DNA of 55,955 bases, the filler included, from Basidiobolus ranarum (taxonomy: Eukaryota), in NCBI GenBank assembly GCA_040143965.1. It is 4 parts of 4 records of this genome, joined end to end, with 100 filler letters (N's around TTAATTAATTAA, not from the genome) between each part and the next. Parts side by side here need not be neighbours in the genome. Positions count along the whole stretch, not along the records: positions 14,043 to 27,976 come from JASJQH010007328.1; 3 more parts are not named here. One strand, written 5' to 3'. Positions 13,943 through 42,084 of the stretch are shown piece by piece; position 1 is the first letter of the stretch; every line of letters begins with the position of its first letter. Made by a program: the position numbers and the translations under genes. Below the pieces are notes generated by a model that was given only the letters and a program-made list of their open reading frames with translations, did no database searches and had not been told where the DNA came from.

Positions 13943-14042
13943 NNNNNNNNNNNNNNNNNNNNNNNNNNNNNNNNNNNNNNNNNNNNTTAATTAATTAANN
14001 NNNNNNNNNNNNNNNNNNNNNNNNNNNNNNNNNNNNNNNNNN
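13943..14042. other. Artificial contig spacer
   Basis: N44-TTAATTAATTAA-N44, exactly 100 bp; the core gives stops in all six frames. Confidence 0.97.
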
Positions 14043-16200: not shown

Positions 16201-17102
16201 GGGCTCATAGTGTACACCTAGAATTGGTATTAGGTTTCTCTCGACGATGTTATCTATTTGAATTCATGCTCTTCAACAGCTAAATAACTTCAGGGACATC
16301 TAGATTCAATCAATACAAGATACTGGGCTTATCCGTGTGAATTATCTTCTTGTCCAATACCAAGTACTTCGATGTACCTGGCTCGTTTTTATCAATACAT
16401 AGCGGCATCCACCCCCTCTCTGGTTTGGATACGCTCTGTATAGCTACTTATTCACATGATTTAGGAGACCTAAAAGGTAAACATAAATTACAAATAAAAC
16501 CAGGTAACATGTCAGTATAGTAGTATTCCCCATTTCAATCGAAGGTGGCTTATGTCTATGCTTCAAGTAGTGGTAGTATTGGAGATGGAGTATCCTAACT
16601 GTCTAGGCATATTATGCAATGCGGTTGTCGGGAATTTATTTGCATTAATCTAGGTAAGGATTAACGAGATTAAATCAAATTACTATTATATCACTGTGGG
16701 GAAATTTCACTTATACGCTAGAAATACCTGCGTAATGGGGAAAGGCGAATTCAATGCCAGGCGGGGAGCTTTAGTGGCAAAATTATATATTCCGAATCTT
16801 GTCGTAGTGAGATCCTTGTTAATTATAGTATGAACAAGTCCACTTAAAATAAAGACTAATAACAAATGAATTCCTACCATGGACGTAAAACCTCTGGAGT
16901 AGCGTAAGTGAACTTCATCTTCGGGCATGCATATCATTTTCATATATATGAGTCAATATCTCAACTTACTAAAGTATTGTTCTATCTTTCCTTGTTACAA
17001 AAGGTTTCCTGACTTTTCGGAAAAGCTGTAGTATTCACTTGAAAAAAAGCTACATTCACTTTATACCATTCCTTGTTTAACTCACTTATTCCAACATCCA
17101 TT

Positions 17103-18581
17103 ATGGCAGCAGTTCATATCACATCTCCAATTGTCAGACATGCTCCGTTACTGGAAAGCGCTAAAATCACAGAGCTGGATTTGCGCGGAGAGACATGTTG
17201 GTTTGTTCTGACCATAGTGCCTCTTTCCGCTGATAATCTGAGTAATCCGGGGACTTCTACGAGATCCTATAAAATCTTCAGAAGGTTCGAACATTTCCAA
17301 TATTTCGCAAACTACATAAAAGTGGAGTGTAAAGATTCCAATTGCCAAGTACCGAAGTTGAAAATAAGAAAGAGGTTGCTGTTTTCAAAGAACTTATACG
17401 CTGAGCGTAGAAAAGAAGATTTGAACCGGTTTTTATTGAAAATCTTTCAACTCCCATTGAAAGTTAAATCTTCTCTCTGTTTCGCTGAATTCTTGGGTAT
17501 TTGGAAGGGTGATCTGAAGGAGAATCGTTTAGATTCAGTCTCGTTGGCCCCGAAACTGGATTACTTAGATGAGGAATCATCTTCAGAAGTTAAAAAAATC
17601 GTAGTCACAACTTCACGAAAATCTACTGCTGCAACTGATAAAGAAGCCCTTATTCCCAGTCACTGCCCACCTATCAGAAGTGATTCACTCAAACAAACAA
17701 CATCCAACTTAAATCAGGAACCTAGGCCGTACCTAAAGCAGAGGAAAGAGTCCACCGAGGATATTGTGTGTGCTGAACCTAATGTTCAGCGTGCCAAAAC
17801 ATGCCTAACTAAAAGTTTGAGTAGCCACAATATGATGTCATCTCCGTGGAATAACTTAGAGAAAACCCCCTCTTTAAAGGTGGCACCTTGGAATATTCGT
17901 CACCTGACTCCAAAAGAGATGTTCACTCTGGAAGATAAACGACAATCCCTTACCAGATCGCATACATACACTCTAGGGATCAGGAGAAGTATGCACTTTA
18001 TATCTCCATTTATTCGAATTAAGGTGCTTCTGAATTCCGAACACATAATTACCTTTCTAGTTCCCAGAAACGTTCAACTCGACGAAATGAGACGACGTAT
18101 TAGTGAAAAAATTAAAAAAAGTGGAATAGACGAGTTCGTCCAAGAGGATGGGATAATTCCCTGCTACAAATATGATAACAAACTTGTAATAGTAGCTACT
18201 AACGAGGATCTTCGTAGAGTCTTGGTAGATAATAGAGATAAATTCGTCTTTTATCTACCTTCGAATAACCTTTTGGAAGAGTTCTTCTGGATGAGAGAAG
18301 TGATGGAGAACAGACACAGCATACGTGACTCTAAAAAACCCAACGAAAAGAAGAAATTCTCCCAATTAGAGGCCCTTGAATTACGCCAAGCCGCTTTACT
18401 TTCCTTTCAAAAGCGCAACACCCTAGTTAACTTCCGAAAGAGTGAATCCCTATCAGTCTTACAAGCCATACCAAATATAGGTCCTAATGCAGTCAAGCCT
18501 AACCACCATTCTGCAGGGATACCAAGAAGTCGGTACCAAAATAGGCAATACAGAAGGAGCAGAGAGCATAACCAACTCTAA
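17103..18581 (+). CDS. PX domain plus PB1-like domain protein
   Basis: N-terminal PX pattern (YKIFRRFEHF..VPKL..ERRKEDLNRFL..I..LP..FL) and PB1-like pattern (IRIKV..I..VPRNV.LDEMRRRISEK..YKYD..NEDL). First ATG at 17103. Confidence 0.7.
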   Translation: MAAVHITSPIVRHAPLLESAKITELDLRGETCWFVLTIVPLSADNLSNPGTSTRSYKIFRRFEHFQYFANYIKVECKDSNCQVPKLKIRKRLLFSKNLYAERRKEDLNRFLLKIFQLPLKVKSSLCFAEFLGIWKGDLKENRLDSVSLAPKLDYLDEESSSEVKKIVVTTSRKSTAATDKEALIPSHCPPIRSDSLKQTTSNLNQEPRPYLKQRKESTEDIVCAEPNVQRAKTCLTKSLSSHNMMSSPWNNLEKTPSLKVAPWNIRHLTPKEMFTLEDKRQSLTRSHTYTLGIRRSMHFISPFIRIKVLLNSEHIITFLVPRNVQLDEMRRRISEKIKKSGIDEFVQEDGIIPCYKYDNKLVIVATNEDLRRVLVDNRDKFVFYLPSNNLLEEFFWMREVMENRHSIRDSKKPNEKKKFSQLEALELRQAALLSFQKRNTLVNFRKSESLSVLQAIPNIGPNAVKPNHHSAGIPRSRYQNRQYRRSREHNQL

Positions 18582-19256: not shown

Positions 19257-22200
19257 CTACGTTGATGCTTCTGTTGAGCTAGCCTTGTCTCTACCTGAAT
19301 TCATGAACACATTCCAGTATTCTCGGGTAGCGCCACAGCTTCTGACATGGGTCAGTATCGACGGAAGAATATCGGATATGGCCTTGAATAAAGGTGTAAC
19401 AACAAAATCTGCAAATGTAATTGCTAGCCGTGGTTGCTGTGGATTACCACGGTCGCCAAAAGCAGAGACAGGGAGTTGTATTTCTTTCTCCAGATCACCC
19501 TATATATAGGAATATATTGAAGGGATAATTAGCTTGGATCCACACATGCACACACTAAGTGGTTGAATGGAAAATTACCTGATTAAACATTTCCTCTTGT
19601 ATAAGATCAGACCAAGCGCGAGCTAAATGTAAGGGTCTAATGGTGTTGCTAACATCCGCACATTTCATGAGCATTTCCAGCAGCCTAAGTCGATGACTCC
19701 GATCATCCCATCTCCATCCCGAAGTAACACATTCATTGAAATTGGCCATCACTTCCATGTGTCGGCCCATATCCGTGGCTAGTATACATTTAATGATGAT
19801 TGAGCGCAGCTCAGCAACAACCGCAGCAGAGAGATCCCCAAATATATTGGCTTCAGGTAAATTACGCAAAAGCACGAAAGTTTGATGTGCGTGAAAGTTC
19901 TCTAGCACAGATGAATCATTGTATAGAATTGCCAACTCGGAGCTGGTCGCTACATGGAAGTTATTGGTGTGCCCATCATGAGAAAGGTCATGACAAAGAC
20001 ACGCAACAATGAAGGCAAATCTCTCATTCATTGTGAAAATGGAATGGCTGGGAGAACTGGATTTCGATGCCGGAGCCTCATGTATGTGAGTGCTTTCTTC
20101 AAGAAGGTCAGGTGGTGAATCATCTAAAGTGTTGGTAAGTTCTGAATCTTTTGTAATCACTATTGGGTCTTCGTAATAGTCTGGACATGAGTGGAGCTGT
20201 TGTAACATTTGATTTTTGGCTAGTAATGACAATGGGTTCTCGCATTGTGTGTCTAGCGGTTCATTGAAGTTGAAATCACAAGCTTCACGAAGAAACAGAT
20301 ACCCTGCTTGTGTAACATCAAAAGCATGCCTAAAGTTATGGTAGGGGTTCTGAGAGGTATTGTATCCATCTTTAACAGCATGAAGGAAAGCAGTAAGCGT
20401 TTCCAAAGAAATGTTGTAGTGTTGTATAAAACCGAGTTCATTGAACATGTCGACCAGGAACGGTAAAAGTTCCATTTCGGTATATGACCAGACGTCAAAT
20501 CCCCACGAATTAAGCAATATGGCCCGCTGGGGTTTTGGAAAAATCGCAGAAGGACTGGGCGGTGATTCCGGATAGTTGCGCTCAGAAGTGGGTGTGGGAG
20601 GTACTGTGGTTATCGATTCGGATTCACTTTTCAACTGTGATGCGGGTGATAAATACAACCCATTACAATTTGAGTTCGATTGTTTAGAAGGGCTGTGTGA
20701 TTTGAGTGTGTATGAAGAAGGCTCCACCCAATCATCAGTAGTGCCTTCATTGAAGCTTGGAATGTCATCTTTGCATTGATGAAGCTCTTCATTTTCGTCA
20801 GGTTGATATTCAGGGATGTTTTCGAGTGCCATATCATACGTATATTCATTTTTGAAGTTAGCACCACGACTATCACTCTTGGCGGTGATGATAGGTTCAT
20901 CATGCTCTAAATCAGACAGCTCAAGATAATGGTTGAACGAAGGCCCATCAGGGCCGAAAAGCTCTGCATTGGACAATTGATCATGAACGCTATGCATTCT
21001 TTGCCTGCGTGATCTTAATCCATTAGCAAACCGACTAAGCTGTTGAGTGTCTGAATTACGACGTTGGTTCGAACCTCGATAGTAAAATCCGCCTCCGCTC
21101 ATGTTTTTGTAATCCATTGGATCTTCAGACTCATTGGCATGACTACGCTCCCATACATCCGAGGGCCAACCATTTTCACCGTACATGGAATATACCGATC
21201 CCTCTAAAGATGATGCTCTACGATGTCGAGAAGGATACGATCGCCGAGATCTTTCTAGCCGAATTCCATCCGGGGGTGTGGACAACGGAGCATCTCGAAT
21301 CACTTCAGTGGATAGCCAGTTACGAGTCTCTCGGTCAAGATTTTTGTTGTGCAAAAGCTTTTCAAAAGCTGGCCGGTACAAATTGGTAGATTTTAAGGAG
21401 GATAGAATAGTGGCAAGAGTTTTCCTATAAATCATAATAATGTTGTCAGCAAAATGGGTAATATAGAATGAAGTACTAATATATGAATGTCGGCGTACTT
21501 CGCTTCATCAGACATGCCAGTACTTTGCAAAAGATCGGTAACAGTCCTAGTAATAAGGTTGATTGGCGTTTCAATAGCTTGCAACATCTGATCTTGTAAC
21601 ATATCGACAGCCAGTTCAAGAGACCTTCTTTTATTACGCTCCTCTTCAAGCATTAACATAACCTGTATTTGTATAAAGTTATTTAGAAAGATAATACATT
21701 AAGACAGTTTGCAGATATTCCTTCTTACCTTTCTCTCCTTTCGTTTACGCCAAACACTTCTCCAAACGGTTTTCACTGTTTCCAATCGAACAGGTTTTAA
21801 AACATAATCATCAGCACCCAACTGAAGGCAATTGCAAGCAAGTTCAAGTTGTTCGGGATCCGCCATCACTAGAAGATTCTGGTTTAATAGTCAGAAAAAC
21901 AATATGTTAAAAACTAGAACTTACTAATTACTGGAAGGTCCTTGAGGTCATCACTAGAGCGAATACTTTTTAGAATTTCAAGGCCTTGATTTTGTCCATT
22001 AGAGTTCTCATAAGTGATGCTAACAATCACTAATTGGTAGGTGATGGAAGGCTTTTCAAATTCGATCTATGAAAACGAAATTTGAGTATCAGCCAATTAC
22101 AAAAGTGGTAAATATTAACTAAAGTTTACATAGGAATCGTTGCAAGATCTGCGGAGAATTGCTAAGGCTGAATTAGTATCGGCCACCAAATCAACTATCA

Positions 22201-22637
22201 AAGATTATAAAGTTAATAATCCTGTGTATACGTTAAAAAAGTATATGGAATATACCAGGATAGCCGATTTTTCTTAAGTGCTGTCTTACGAGGCGACCGT
22301 GTAATATATCATCGTCATAAATCAGAACTTTCACTTCACTCGGACTAAAACTAAGCTTCCTCAAGAAAAATTGATGAAAGGTTGGATCCGTGGGGGAAAT
22401 GGGAGGAGTATATTGATCAAGAGAGGTCGTAGAACTTTTGCGCTCAGTTTCTGACGGAGTTGAGTTTAGTCCAACAGGTGCTGTCAATATAAGTGGTGAT
22501 AACGAGGGCTTTAAATTGGAGGGATGGTCGTATATTTCGAGATTATCGCTAGATATAATCGTAGCGGCATGATCGTAGGACGTAGATCTCATGGATCTCA
22601 ACGGGACAGGTTTAGTAAGATCCGGATTGTAATGCAT
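19257..22637 (-). CDS. Class I cyclic-nucleotide phosphodiesterase with an N-terminal (pseudo-)receiver domain, RegA-like architecture; multi-exon
   Basis: Catalytic motifs NPYHNFRHAFDV, CHDLSHDGHTN, LYNDSSVLENFH, ILATDM, KCADVSN and EEMFNQGD. Small exons at about 21730-22330 splice to KVLIYDDD..YQLVIVSITY..GLEILKSIR..LPVIMMA..LGADDYVLKP. Last exon 19500-19257. Confidence 0.9.
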
Positions 22638-25550: not shown

Positions 25551-26264
25551 CAGGTTCGCTTAAAGTCGATCATTATCTGATCCAAGTAATCACTATGAGA
25601 TTTGAAATCATTGCTGTTATGCAAGGATAGGGCAATAGCAATACTTCATCGAGGCCTATTACTCTTAAACTTTCCAACAATCACATCCTACTGAATACTC
25701 GCAGTTAGTCACAAGGATTAGTTTTCGACTGCCACCCCTGCCTCCGATTCAGTCACTCCCAGATTAGTTGTACATGAAACGTCTATACCCAATACATACC
25801 ATAATAACTGACTATTGGACCAAAGTACATCCTACTAGTGGGAATGTTTTATAAGCGATTTAAGATTATGTATAAGGCGCTCACTGCCTCTTCAAGTTGT
25901 CTTCTAGGAGCTATTAAACTACTATGACGTACGATGGGGCGGAGAAACATGTATCAACGATTGTTGTTTAAATAGCCAGAAACTCAATATTTTAGGGTTG
26001 ATTCGTGCCACAAGGAAGTAAATCTAGAACATGAAGTATTTGATGTTGGCGCCATATACACGCATATGCACACAGTTCCATAAGCCATGGATGTAGCCCC
26101 ATATGATACCTATAAATACCTTTTGCCACAAAAATAAACCTCTGAACATGATTGTTGTAACTGAAATTGATGACAAAATGAAGTGAATCGAATGAGTCAA
26201 GCAAAACATATAAGAGCCGAGGTCACTCACCAAATATGTGCTGAAGCTACTTCATATATCGGCT

Positions 26265-27242
26265 ATGAGACTAAAAATCACTTTCTACGCGCTACTACTA
26301 CTGGTTGTGAGTAAACCCATTACCACAACTAACACTGCTGCATGCAAGGGTTCCTGTTCAGGGTCAAATAAAACCATAATTCAAAAGAATGCTCCATGGC
26401 ATCTGGCCCGCATAAGTCACCGCTCACTGAACACAACCAGTAAAAATGAATTTTCCTATCAGTCTGCTCGTGATGGAAGTGGAGTAACGATTTACGTATT
26501 TGATTCAGGCGTTGATACCTCTCACGCTGAGTTTAGTGGCCGTGCCCGTATTGGTGCTGATTTCATTGATGATGGTGTTCCAGATAACGATGGCCATGGT
26601 ACCGAATGCGCAAGTTTGGTTAATGGAAAGACTGTTGGTGTGGCAAAAAAGGCCCAGATTGTCTCTGTAAAGGTGACATATCGTCGTCGGCCCCGCAAAC
26701 TTTCGGATGCTTTTAAGTTTGTTTTAAATGATGCTAAAAAAAACCCCAAATTCAAATCTGTAATAAGTATGTCCGTCGGAATAGAGAATGCTGAACAAGA
26801 GACTGAAGACGCTCTCACAGAAGTTATCAGAGCTGGTATCACCGTCATTGCGGCAGCCGGAAATGGAGCTCATGATCCATGTAAGCTATGGCCTGCGTTA
26901 CGTAAAGACGTGATCACAGTCAGTGGTATGGATAAAAATGATCGTTGGGGCAACGAAAGTAGTGGCAAATGCGTTGATATTCTTGCCCCCAGCGATGATA
27001 TACTTGTTGCCTACTACAACCCTGATAAACCCAACAATCATGGTAAACTGAGTATTAGTGGTGGTTCTTCAGATGCGACTCCGATCGTAGCTGGTGTTGT
27101 GGCTGGGTATTTATCGGAAAAGCCAATGTCACCTGCCGAAGTGAGAAAAGTACTGATCAAAGCCGCTGGAAAAAATGTGATCAAAGGCGTCCCTAAAGAT
27201 GGAACACCAAATCTCTTAGTTTATAACAATGATAAAATATAA
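26265..27242 (+). CDS. Secreted subtilisin (S8A, proteinase K-like), intronless
   Basis: Signal peptide; APWHLARIS; triad motifs VFDSG, GHGTECA and GSSDATPIVAG; oxyanion motif AAAGN; C-terminal GTPNLL. Confidence 0.9.
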   Translation: MRLKITFYALLLLVVSKPITTTNTAACKGSCSGSNKTIIQKNAPWHLARISHRSLNTTSKNEFSYQSARDGSGVTIYVFDSGVDTSHAEFSGRARIGADFIDDGVPDNDGHGTECASLVNGKTVGVAKKAQIVSVKVTYRRRPRKLSDAFKFVLNDAKKNPKFKSVISMSVGIENAEQETEDALTEVIRAGITVIAAAGNGAHDPCKLWPALRKDVITVSGMDKNDRWGNESSGKCVDILAPSDDILVAYYNPDKPNNHGKLSISGGSSDATPIVAGVVAGYLSEKPMSPAEVRKVLIKAAGKNVIKGVPKDGTPNLLVYNNDKI

Positions 27243-27976: not shown

Positions 27977-28076
27977 NNNNNNNNNNNNNNNNNNNNNNNN
28001 NNNNNNNNNNNNNNNNNNNNTTAATTAATTAANNNNNNNNNNNNNNNNNNNNNNNNNNNNNNNNNNNNNNNNNNNN
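27977..28076. other. Artificial contig spacer
   Basis: N44-TTAATTAATTAA-N44. Confidence 0.97.
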
Positions 28077-28174: not shown

Positions 28175-30281
28175 GCCTACCGAGAGTCTGGCTGCAGAGA
28201 GAGCTAACCCATCTTTCCCTATACGTGAGCTTACCTACTATTTGGATGGAGGTGAAGAGGAGACCAAGGTTCGTTCATCTTAGGGAATGATGAGATAATC
28301 CATTTCTAATTCTAACCCCATTTTCCGCACAAATTAGCTGAATGAAAAATTCATGTTTCAACTGGAAAGAGATCCATTATGGAAAATGGAAGATCATTAC
28401 AATTTGACTCTTCCTGAAGTGAGAGAAAGAACTTTACTCAAACTCAGAAATGTTCTTCCTTATTTAGCCAATGAATCCAAAGACAATTTCCACAAACGTC
28501 TTATTTTGATGGGTTTAGTAGATCCAGCTTTTTATACCAGACTTGGTGTTCACACCGGTTTGTTCTTTAGTACCATTGAAGGACAAGCCACTCCAGCTCA
28601 ATACGAGTATTGGGTTAAGAGAGGTGCTTTGGCTTTGAATGGCATTACTGGATGCTTTGCCATGACTGAGCTTGGCCATGGATCTAATGTTGCTGGACTT
28701 GAAACTACCGCCACCTTTGACGAAGCCACCGATGAATTCATTATTCACACCCCCACCATTACCGCTACAAAGTGGTGGATCGGTGGCGCAGCACACACAG
28801 CTACCCATACAACTGCCTTCGCACAATTGATCGTCAAGGGCAAAAACTATGGTGCCAAACCATTTGTTGTCCCCCTTCGTGACGCCAACACCTTCAACCT
28901 ATTACCTGGTGTCAATATCGGCGATATCGGTAAGAAGATGGGCCGTGATGGCATTGACAATGGCTGGATTCAATTCACCTATGTTCGCATCCCTCGGCAA
29001 AACATGTTGATGAGATTTGCACAAGTCACTCGTACTGGGGAGGTCATTCAATCACCTCTCGCTCAACTCGCATACGGTGCGCTAATTGGTGCTAGAGTCA
29101 CTCTAATCCGTGACGGTGCGAATTTTGCGAAAAAAGCCCTAACTATCGCACTTAGATATGCTGCAGTTCGTCGACAATTCTCATCCAATCCTAAAGAGCC
29201 AGAGACGAAAATTTTAGATTATGTAATTCACCAAAATCGTCTGCTACCTTTATTAGCGGAAGCAGTAGCCGTTAATTTTACCAGTGTAGAAGTTCAAAAG
29301 TTGTACACTCAATTGATGCATCAATTACAAAATGCACGTCCTGGCCAAGATATGTCGGAAACCTTTGCTCTTCTCAAAGAAACTCACGCAACTACTGCTG
29401 GACTTAAGGCTTTCTGTACTTGGAATTGCTTGAGTGCTATTGAAGAATGTCGTCAAGCCTGTGGTGGCCATGGTTATTCTGGTTATACTGGATTGGCATC
29501 TATGTATTCCGACTTTGCTATTCAATGCACTTGGGAAGGTGATAACACTATTTTGACTCTTCAGACTGGTCGCTCCCTTATCAATAGCTACCTCGATATC
29601 AAGCGGGGAAAAACCGTCTCTAAAGGGCTTGACTACCTCAAGAAAGCAGGTGAACTCAGTACCATGCGCTGCCCCGGAGATGATGTCGCTTCAATTGCAA
29701 ACATGGACACCATATCTGAGGCTTGGAGTGTAGTTGCTGCTAACGCTGTTAAAATCTCAGCAGACATATATGAAAATTCCAAGAGCAAGGGGATTAGCAA
29801 AGATGCCGCATTGGAAAGCTGCGCAGTGGAGCGTCTTCATGCTGCACGTATGCACAGTTACGGCTACATATTCAACAAGTTCTCCGATGCTGTACGCCAA
29901 GCACCCGAAAGCATTCGCCCCGTATTGACCAATCTTTGTTTACTTTATGGTCTCCATAGCATCAAAGAAAACGCTGGCGAGTTTCTTGGTTGCCAATATT
30001 TCACTGCTTCTCACATGTCAGTGATCCGGGAGCAAGTCAATTATCTATGCTCAGTCATTCGTAAGGATGCAATTCCATTGGTTGATTCGTTCAACTATTC
30101 CGATTATATCATCAATTCGCCATTGGGTAGATATGATGGAAATGTTTATGAAGCGTACTTTAACCTAGTCAAGGCCAACAATCCTCAACAACCGGTTCCA
30201 TATTTTGAGTCGGTCATCAAACCCATTCTTTCTGCCAACTACAATCAAACAGAAATCCCTGATCTGGAAATTGATCAGTAA
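28175..30281 (+). CDS. POX1: Peroxisomal acyl-CoA oxidase, 5' partial
   Basis: Exons 28175-28268 and 28338-30281; motifs GCFAMTELGHGSNV, KWWIGGAAH, GIDNG, CRQACGGHGYS, TWEGDN and LGRYDGNVY. The first exon is not found on this contig. Confidence 0.93.
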
Positions 30282-41984: not shown

Positions 41985-42084
41985 NNNNNNNNNNNNNNNN
42001 NNNNNNNNNNNNNNNNNNNNNNNNNNNNTTAATTAATTAANNNNNNNNNNNNNNNNNNNNNNNNNNNNNNNNNNNNNNNNNNNN
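41985..42084. other. Artificial contig spacer
   Basis: N44-TTAATTAATTAA-N44. Confidence 0.97.

Follow-up and report, generated by a model that had tools for sequence, protein, structure and literature searches.

An aspartate-less receiver domain, very probably uncoupled from the His-Asp phosphorelay, in a RegA-type phosphodiesterase of the fungus Basidiobolus ranarum

Background

The RegA type of cyclic-nucleotide phosphodiesterase (PDE) is defined by a receiver domain followed by an HD-type class I PDE domain (PMC3906536). RegA itself is cAMP-specific and is also kinase-regulated by ERK2 (PMC11988041), and a derived RegA2 without the receiver residues has already been noted (PMC3906536). Animal and human PDE8 likewise have an N-terminal receiver (PMC13095499). 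Among fungi, the atypical receiver CanguRR10 of Catenaria anguillulae (A0A1Y2HN41, P0009) has been tabulated with a C-terminal phosphodiesterase (PMC8510515, Tables S1 and S4), and the same article holds a second case of atypical receiver and phosphodiesterase in Umbelopsis. Here, a gene of the RegA-type layout is described from the minus strand of a 55,955-nucleotide stretch of the Basidiobolus ranarum genome (assembly GCA_040143965.1; parts of four contigs joined by filler, hereafter the window). Its receiver has lost the phosphoacceptor Asp and the conserved Thr/Ser of the pocket, is kept under purifying selection, and is very probably deaf to the phosphorelay.

Receivers without the phosphoacceptor (D) are classed as aspartate-less receivers (ALR), and those that have lost any of the acidic pair (DD), D, the beta4 Thr/Ser (T) or the beta5 Lys (K) as pseudo-receivers (PsR) (PMC4395418, PMC12632262). 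Switching by pseudo-receivers outside plants is largely unknown, with one fungal case characterised (PMC12632262).

Gene model and receiver domain

Seven exons running from 22637 to 19257 (Table 1) were joined in a splice model of the window into a single open frame of 993 amino acids. The six introns were all GT-AG, 56-79 nt long and 66-77% AT, and the predicted product was 100% identical to NCBI KAK9710671.1 of B. ranarum. A second B. ranarum copy of the gene (P0002, contig C7356) carried all six introns at the same codon and phase. Position and phase were also common to metagenome loci of protist type for intron 1 (phase 1; L032, L065, L086) and intron 3 (phase 1; L032, L065, L055). Among 226 possible GT-AG paths into the PDE exon, the chosen model scored 213.0 bits on a profile built without Basidiobolus rows, and tied with a path lacking five loop residues (213.6 bits). 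The 10 paths within 30 bits of the best all retained the Ser-bearing strand described below, and no path restoring an acceptor Asp was found in the best 10 of the 226.

An earlier note on this DNA had proposed that four small exons splice together and onto the PDE, and the frame, the database match and the second copy bear this out. Its peptide corresponds to residues 102-239, and the join to the PDE further requires introns 4 and 5, two small exon junctions beyond that peptide, both of them sound. Comparison with the second copy and the protist-type introns, together with path scoring, gives strong though indirect support to the assignment of the four exons to the PDE gene. The NCBI 'variant 2' isoform of the protein begins at Met197, without most of the receiver, and may be either a real isoform or an annotation artefact; gene models of B. 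meristosporus, A. macrogynus and B. emersonii also begin inside or after the receiver, that of B. meristosporus within it, which leaves the D site outside the model.

Pfam detected both domains, Response_reg at residues 104-229 (43.1 bits, cut-off 30.2) and PDEase_I (249.8 bits). The AlphaFold2 model of the whole protein (28 alignment rows, mean pLDDT 65.7) displayed a disordered tail, a helix (85-95), a five-stranded receiver, a continuous helix (225-289), three short helices up to residue 339, a disordered stretch (343-583, pLDDT < 50) and the PDE domain. Receiver pLDDT was mostly 87-95, except in the alpha2-beta3 loop, and the (beta-alpha)5 fold matched solved receivers with Z up to 19.5 (rmsd 2.0 over 132 residues).

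Within this fold, the pocket residues D108, D109 and K221 were retained, as the earlier note had read them. The two RegA-type hallmarks that it had reported missing are indeed absent. At the acceptor position (Asp212 of RegA) stands Ser165, which closes strand beta3 (161-165) in the model and receives the RegA Asp in a BLASTP alignment with Heterostelium RegA. At the end of beta4 the Thr/Ser is replaced by Ala199, in a gapless alignment that sets it 15 residues upstream of the beta5 Gly, as in five other gapless rows. The domain is thereby both an aspartate-less receiver and a pseudo-receiver. Acidic residues occupied T+1 (Asp200) and D+4 (Glu169) in both B. ranarum copies; acidic residues at these places are unusual in working receivers and a trend among pseudo-receivers (PMC12632262).

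Silent sites between the two copies were saturated (pS 0.79). At the protein level, identity reached 0.90 for the receiver core (0.84 once loops were counted), 0.94 for the coil, 0.96 for the helical module and 0.89-0.90 for the PDE domain but only 0.58 for the linker and 0.29 for the PDE insert, and Ser165 was kept in both copies by different codons (AGC and AGT). Because about 90% identity persists at saturated silent sites while the linker has fallen to 58%, the dead receiver is not drifting but is under purifying selection, as conserved as the catalytic domain. A pseudogene or unselected decay is ruled out by the same conservation.

Two HPt loci, each with the active His, and 47 matches to receivers were found in the B. 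ranarum genome, and the His-Asp relay machinery thus remains present. Even so, the loss of both D and T makes it very probable that this receiver is uncoupled from the relay.

A resemblance of the receiver tail to plant PRR/TOC1 pseudo-receivers had been suggested earlier. The best solved match of the beta5-alpha5 end (21868-21729) was plant ARR1, a true Asp receiver (E 3e-6; bacterial receivers E 0.04 or worse), and the PRR-like tail was also present in Asp-bearing relatives; the tail does not mark a pseudo-receiver, and kinship with PRR proteins cannot be read from it. In the structure ranking of the receiver, plant PRR models came first. A shared origin of the RegA-family and plant type-B/PRR receivers is possible.

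Family placement and decay of the receiver

Relatives with the same order of receiver, coil, helical module and PDE were found in Blastocladiomycota, Sanchytrium, Parvularia, Pigoraptor, Gefionella, many Amoebozoa and further samples. An IQ-TREE phylogeny (44 chosen rows, 496 columns) grouped Basidiobolus with Blastocladiomycota and Sanchytrium (100/99), joined this fungal clade to Parvularia, Pigoraptor and P0012 (98/92), and nested both in a clade of 28 rows that also takes in Gefionella and tubulinean amoebae (96/99). Dictyostelid RegA fell in a separate clade (100/99), and forcing RegA together with the opisthokont rows, a group named after the tree was seen, was rejected (p-AU 1e-4). The Basidiobolus protein is therefore not sister to dictyostelid RegA; the fork joining both branches was unsettled in this tree, and amoebozoans occurred in both. 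A FastTree of 171 PDE domains recovered the same fungal clade. Of the comparison suggested in the earlier note, the IQ-TREE phylogeny covered Heterostelium RegA and Pde2-type rows, with no rows for D. discoideum RegA, PDE8, PDE9 or yeast Pde2.

Receiver sites were compared in 46 complete relatives, after removal of 10 near-duplicates, of rows below 40 bits for the helical module and of rows gapped at a site. All five catalytic sites were intact in 32 of the 46 but in none of the seven fungal rows. Paraphysoderma had lost only T; Allomyces, Catenaria, Blastocladiella and Sorochytrium had lost T and the second acid; both Basidiobolus copies had lost T and D. A survey of the Asp position in early-diverging fungi, as the earlier note had advised, thus found pseudo-receivers in all seven complete fungal members, with Basidiobolus alone among them lacking the Asp, and the site pattern indicates that Thr/Ser was lost before Asp in the fungal lineage. 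Outside the 46, Coelomomyces also lacked the acids and Lys, T was Ala in Pigoraptor, K was Arg in Parvularia and D was Ser in P0095. The receiver was undetectable in Sanchytrium and two close relatives (P0010, P0011, P0013), which kept the coil and helical module. P0012 kept D, S and K (beta1 missing), which counts against a clean opisthokont rule.

As most relatives keep all five sites and two introns are shared with protist-type loci, the sequence evidence places the Basidiobolus protein by descent in the RegA-architecture family, where its opisthokont branch is distinct from that of dictyostelid RegA. The earlier idea of a relay-uncoupled module derived in fungi from two-component signalling very probably holds for the uncoupling and does not hold for the fungal derivation. 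A recent bacterial fusion or transfer is ruled out by the tree nesting and the shared introns. Six non-fungal relatives among the 46 had also lost D, as had two Planoprotostelium proteins, which indicates that aspartate-less receiver-PDEs arose more than once.

Five members (P0081, P0083, P0084, P0091, P0093) carried a second degenerate receiver downstream of the PDE domain. Among 71 metagenome loci searched for further fungal orthologues, one was nearest to Basidiobolus, and that locus had no receiver or helical match. Searches that were word-limited or hid relatives above 50% identity turned up no named orthologue from chytrids, Mucoromycota or Dikarya.

Catalytic domain and substrate

The PDE domain superposed on the PDE9A structure over 322 residues (Z 43.8, rmsd 1.9), PDE9A being the closest solved catalytic domain in both profile and fold searches, and the metal ligands H660, H664, H776, D777 and D888 were invariant (28 of 28 rows). 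Mammalian PDE families share an invariant Gln that binds the purine. In the alignment, this Gln of PDE9A falls on Ala939 and is lost. The site was occupied by Gly in Blastocladiomycota, Ser in Gefionella and Pigoraptor, Ala or Thr in the RegA clade and Gln in most tubulinean-type rows. Given such variability across the family, the loss would lower the claim on specificity and not that on fold. The genome gave at least three cyclase matches, all with the Lys motif of adenylyl type, and no guanylyl cyclase among these matches. The product is predicted to be an active cyclic-nucleotide PDE whose substrate is fairly likely to be cAMP. Passages of PMC7590022 held nothing on specificity.

Regulatory stalk and proposed mode of control

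A basophilic motif (two basic residues, any residue, Ser/Thr) was found 5-9 residues upstream of beta1 in 14 of 41 relatives, including six of seven fungal rows (12 near-duplicates and five short N-termini excluded). Shuffled sequences gave a mean of 0.64 and a maximum of 5, and none of 2000 shuffles reached 14. A second basophilic site, Ser257, flanks the coiled coil, and Ser/Thr occurred at this position in Basidiobolus and five Blastocladiomycota rows.

For residues 80-345, homodimer prediction scored 0.45 (0.00 for the best of three controls), with partner pLDDT of at least 71 and at least 76% of contacts common to runs. The predicted interface comprised alpha4-beta5-alpha5, the coil and the helical module. 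Seventeen of 29 solved eukaryotic homodimers, and none of 30 single chains, attained the mark used. The stalk probably pairs as a homodimer.

Likeness of the helical module (273-340) to the UCR2 of PDE4 or to PDE8 was not confirmed: a profile match reached into PDE4 constructs with UCR2, and neither Pfam nor single-sequence searches supported it. Extension of the module match onto PDE9A gained about 6 bits, and exon 6 alone matched only protein A repeats, by chance.

Beyond what was computed directly (gene model, folds, lost sites, purifying selection and family placement), a mode of control can be proposed. The receiver, without Asp or Thr/Ser and with Asp200 crowding T+1, would no longer accept a phosphoryl group from HPt and would be kept as a folded module. 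Two chains would contact each other at the alpha4-beta5-alpha5 face and along both coiled coil and helical module, forming a stalk that would set the activity of the tethered catalytic domains. Input would have moved to Ser/Thr kinases, protein kinase A (PKA) first, acting at Ser96 ahead of the receiver and Ser257 in the coil; PKA input on a PDE would form a feedback brake on cAMP. PKA control at these two sites, suggested by the motifs, has a little less than an even chance of being right. For the whole, a cAMP PDE of RegA architecture with a phosphorelay-deaf dimer module and kinase input, the balance tips slightly in favour.

Several points weigh against this proposal. The basophilic motif is found as well in amoebozoan-type members whose receivers are intact and is thus older than the receiver loss; the rows that bear it are kin rather than independent cases, it is missing from 27 of the 41 relatives, and Paraphysoderma shows no more than a near miss and Coelomomyces a Gly there. 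The dimer mark was reached by one of seven eukaryotic cases without an older solved relative, so the pass may reflect memory of solved receiver-coil dimers, and it is silent on the state of the dimer. A disordered linker of 250 residues between stalk and catalytic domain weakens direct mechanical coupling. The closest solved catalytic domain is, moreover, a cGMP-specific one, and the purine-binding Gln is absent.

The acidic T+1 and D+4 residues of both copies, a trend reported for pseudo-receivers (PMC12632262), could also fill the pocket and lock the dimer, possibly in an active state, as a fixed scaffold without input, with control left to expression or isoform choice. The Met197 isoform and the sanchytrid relatives that dropped the receiver but kept coil and helical module would fit such a scaffold. 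Conservation spans the whole domain and the pre-receiver helix (90%), beyond the dimer face, and the basophilic site lies at a constant distance, which makes this explanation unlikely.

The pseudo-receiver might instead bind a partner or small ligand that shifts the dimer, for example a metal at D108/D109/H113 or an HPt that transfers nothing. Basidiobolus retains DD and K, its alpha1 His is common to Blastocladiales and HPt genes with the active His are present, but no candidate partner was identified and the lost pocket residues vary by lineage, against one shared ligand; this alternative appears quite improbable.

An enzyme that prefers cGMP, is dual-specific or is weak, owing to the purine-Gln replacement, is distinctly unlikely too. 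It would agree with the alignment of Ala939 to the PDE9A Gln, with PDE9A as best solved match, and with the Gly found at the site in Blastocladiomycota, which have cGMP signalling (PMC4046227). Yet the Gln is likewise missing from RegA-clade rows although RegA is specific for cAMP, the cyclase matches of the genome, at least three in number, included no guanylyl cyclase, and Pde2-type models too match PDE9A best by fold.

Phosphorylation within the pocket, on Ser165 or a neighbouring acid (Asp200, Glu169), is very improbable: although DD and K are kept, Ser165 is in both copies and Ser recurs at the D site in P0095, P0096, P0114, P0120 and P0127, both D and T are gone, T apparently before D, and His-to-Ser transfer is not known as an established receiver chemistry. 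For the Ser phosphorylation raised in the earlier note, Ser165 found no support as the site, and PKA-type sites beyond the pocket offer a stronger lead.

Pde2-type phosphodiesterases with degenerate receivers

Other PDE genes of the B. ranarum genome were of Pde2 type (contigs C2363, C6988 and C610, loci L013, L014 and L017; C34 by PDE match), and a further class I pair had no receiver match (G000:C38 and C7844; L003, L004, L016). The best solved match of the Pde2-type profile was Candida Pde2 (299.5 bits, next 233). Among 22 Pde2-type proteins (P0197-P0218; Basidiobolus, Mucoromycota, Glomeromycota, Olpidium and others), 20 scored 14.6-44.8 bits on the receiver profile, compared with a maximum of 5.1 bits in 440 shuffles, and all eight tested gave a sub-threshold Pfam receiver hit. 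In the P0203 model, residues 26-228 folded as a receiver (Z 14.7, rmsd 2.1, 117 residues). The best fold match of the Pde2-type models was also PDE9A, and this match is thus not diagnostic. Comparison with yeast/Candida Pde2 gave a sequence match only over Candida residues 190-570, a VIA-align match over 156-570 and a Foldseek alignment of 522 columns (rmsd 14.6); the Pde2-type N-terminus reached no more than 0.80 in an Atlas search.

In early fungi, PDEs with a receiver are thus common, and the Basidiobolus finding is the less surprising for it. The earlier statement that receiver-PDE fusion defines RegA does not hold, as human PDE8 has a receiver and early-fungal Pde2-type proteins carry a degenerate one. 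Early on, fungi had two families of PDE with a receiver, and with them a connection of cAMP to two-component signalling that the yeast picture conceals.

Significance

The aspartate-less variant is new, and its novelty is limited by the Catenaria orthologue, already tabulated with atypical receiver and PDE. A wider scenario is speculative and somewhat unlikely: opisthokonts would have inherited a phosphorelay-driven RegA-type PDE and rewired it early, losing T first and other pocket residues in parallel, until the dead receiver became a kinase-operated dimer switch, with Basidiobolus as the end state while its relay still works, and a Gln-less pocket that reads purines unlike any solved PDE. 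If true, Paraphysoderma (T lost), Basidiobolus (T and D lost) and Sanchytrium (domain erased) would form a natural series from receiver to pseudo-receiver to loss. With an easily assayed enzyme as output and close relatives that span intact, partly decayed, aspartate-less and erased receivers, the switching question becomes directly testable.

Genomic context

The PDE gene lies wholly inside one contig (C7328). Runs of N at 13943-14042, 27977-28076 and 41985-42084, paired around 12-base spacers, mark the joins of the four contigs. No link was seen between the PDE gene and the PX-domain protein, subtilisin-type protease or acyl-CoA oxidase genes nearby (Table 1).

Table 1. Positions in the window of the PDE gene, its parts and neighbouring genes.
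Feature	Position	Strand	Basis
Whole gene, 993 aa: pseudo-receiver, coiled coil, helical module, class I PDE	19257..22637	-	splice model, Pfam, second copy
Exon 1: disordered N-tail, fungal pre-receiver helix (85-95), beta1-alpha1, D108/D109 (22316-22311)	22256..22637	-	model, alignment
Basophilic (PKA-type) motif R93-K-L-S96, 8 residues before beta1	22350..22361	-	14/41 relatives
Exon 2: beta2-alpha2	22130..22194	-	splice model, AlphaFold2
Exon 3: beta3 with Ser165 (AGC, 22021-22019) for acceptor Asp; 4-residue loop insertion; alpha3	21925..22066	-	alignment
Exon 4: beta4 with Ala199 (21863-21861), Asp200 at T+1; beta5 with Lys221 (21797-21795); alpha5	21729..21868	-	alignment
Exon 5: coiled coil (244-272) with second basophilic site Ser257 (21623-21621); start of helical module	21499..21662	-	model, alignment
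Helical module, residues 273-340, spanning intron 5; common to RegA; in predicted dimer interface	21298..21575	-	BLASTP, model
Exon 6	19579..21424	-	splice model
Disordered linker, residues 341-590	20548..21297	-	pLDDT < 50 over 343-583; 58% identity between copies
Class I PDE domain, residues 591-980, variable insert 681-758; H660, H664, H776, D777, D888; Ala939 (19424-19422)	19299..20547	-	Pfam, alignment
Exon 7	19257..19499	-	splice model
PX-domain protein (same contig)	17043..18581	+	
Subtilisin-type protease (same contig)	26214..27242	+	
Acyl-CoA oxidase (next contig)	28338..30281	+	

Comparison with known systems

The literature search, which covered sources other than subscription journals, returned no paper on this Basidiobolus protein, and Basidiobolus had no match in nine supplements of PMC8510515. 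The nearest tabulated protein, CanguRR10, is an orthologue (fungal clade, 100/99) that keeps the Asp and lacks the second acid, whereas the Basidiobolus protein keeps both acids and lacks the Asp. The CanguRR10 T site is scored as Ser in the table of PMC8510515, whereas the gapless alignment here gives Ala at T and Ser at T+1.

Heterostelium album RegA (EFA83871.1, P0113) runs likewise from receiver through coil and helical module to class I PDE, with 28% identity over 318 N-terminal columns (E 4e-31), and the RegA-type layout of receiver and PDE is thus present in Basidiobolus. RegA-clade rows P0082, P0090 and P0109 likewise lack the purine Gln (Ala or Thr). RegA keeps DD, D, S and K and is activated via Asp212 (PMC11988041), whereas the Basidiobolus protein lacks D and T; conversely, RegA lacks the basophilic site that the Basidiobolus protein has.

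PDE8 has a PAS domain between receiver and PDE, whereas no PAS hit was found in any of 28 family rows, including the Basidiobolus protein, whose coil is continuous in the model. Receiver-less isoforms of PDE8 exist, and animals with PDE8 are not known to have a His-Asp relay. The fungal Pde2-type proteins, represented among solved structures by Candida Pde2 (6cpt), are class I PDEs whose rows form a separate family in the IQ-TREE phylogeny (100/100); the early-fungal members keep Asp, Ser, Lys and Gln, lack the second acid, and had no helical module in any of 22 rows.

Plant PRR/TOC1 proteins carry a CCT domain and Glu at D; the Basidiobolus protein has Ser at D and gave no CCT hit in Pfam, and only its receiver shape is near. 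Like members of the ALR and pseudo-receiver classes, the Basidiobolus domain keeps the receiver fold and lacks D and T, and its Ala is the common replacement at T (PMC4395418, PMC12632262). The fungal pseudo-receivers described there are mostly Rim15, with Glu at D, whereas that of Basidiobolus has Ser at D and a cyclic-nucleotide PDE as its output.

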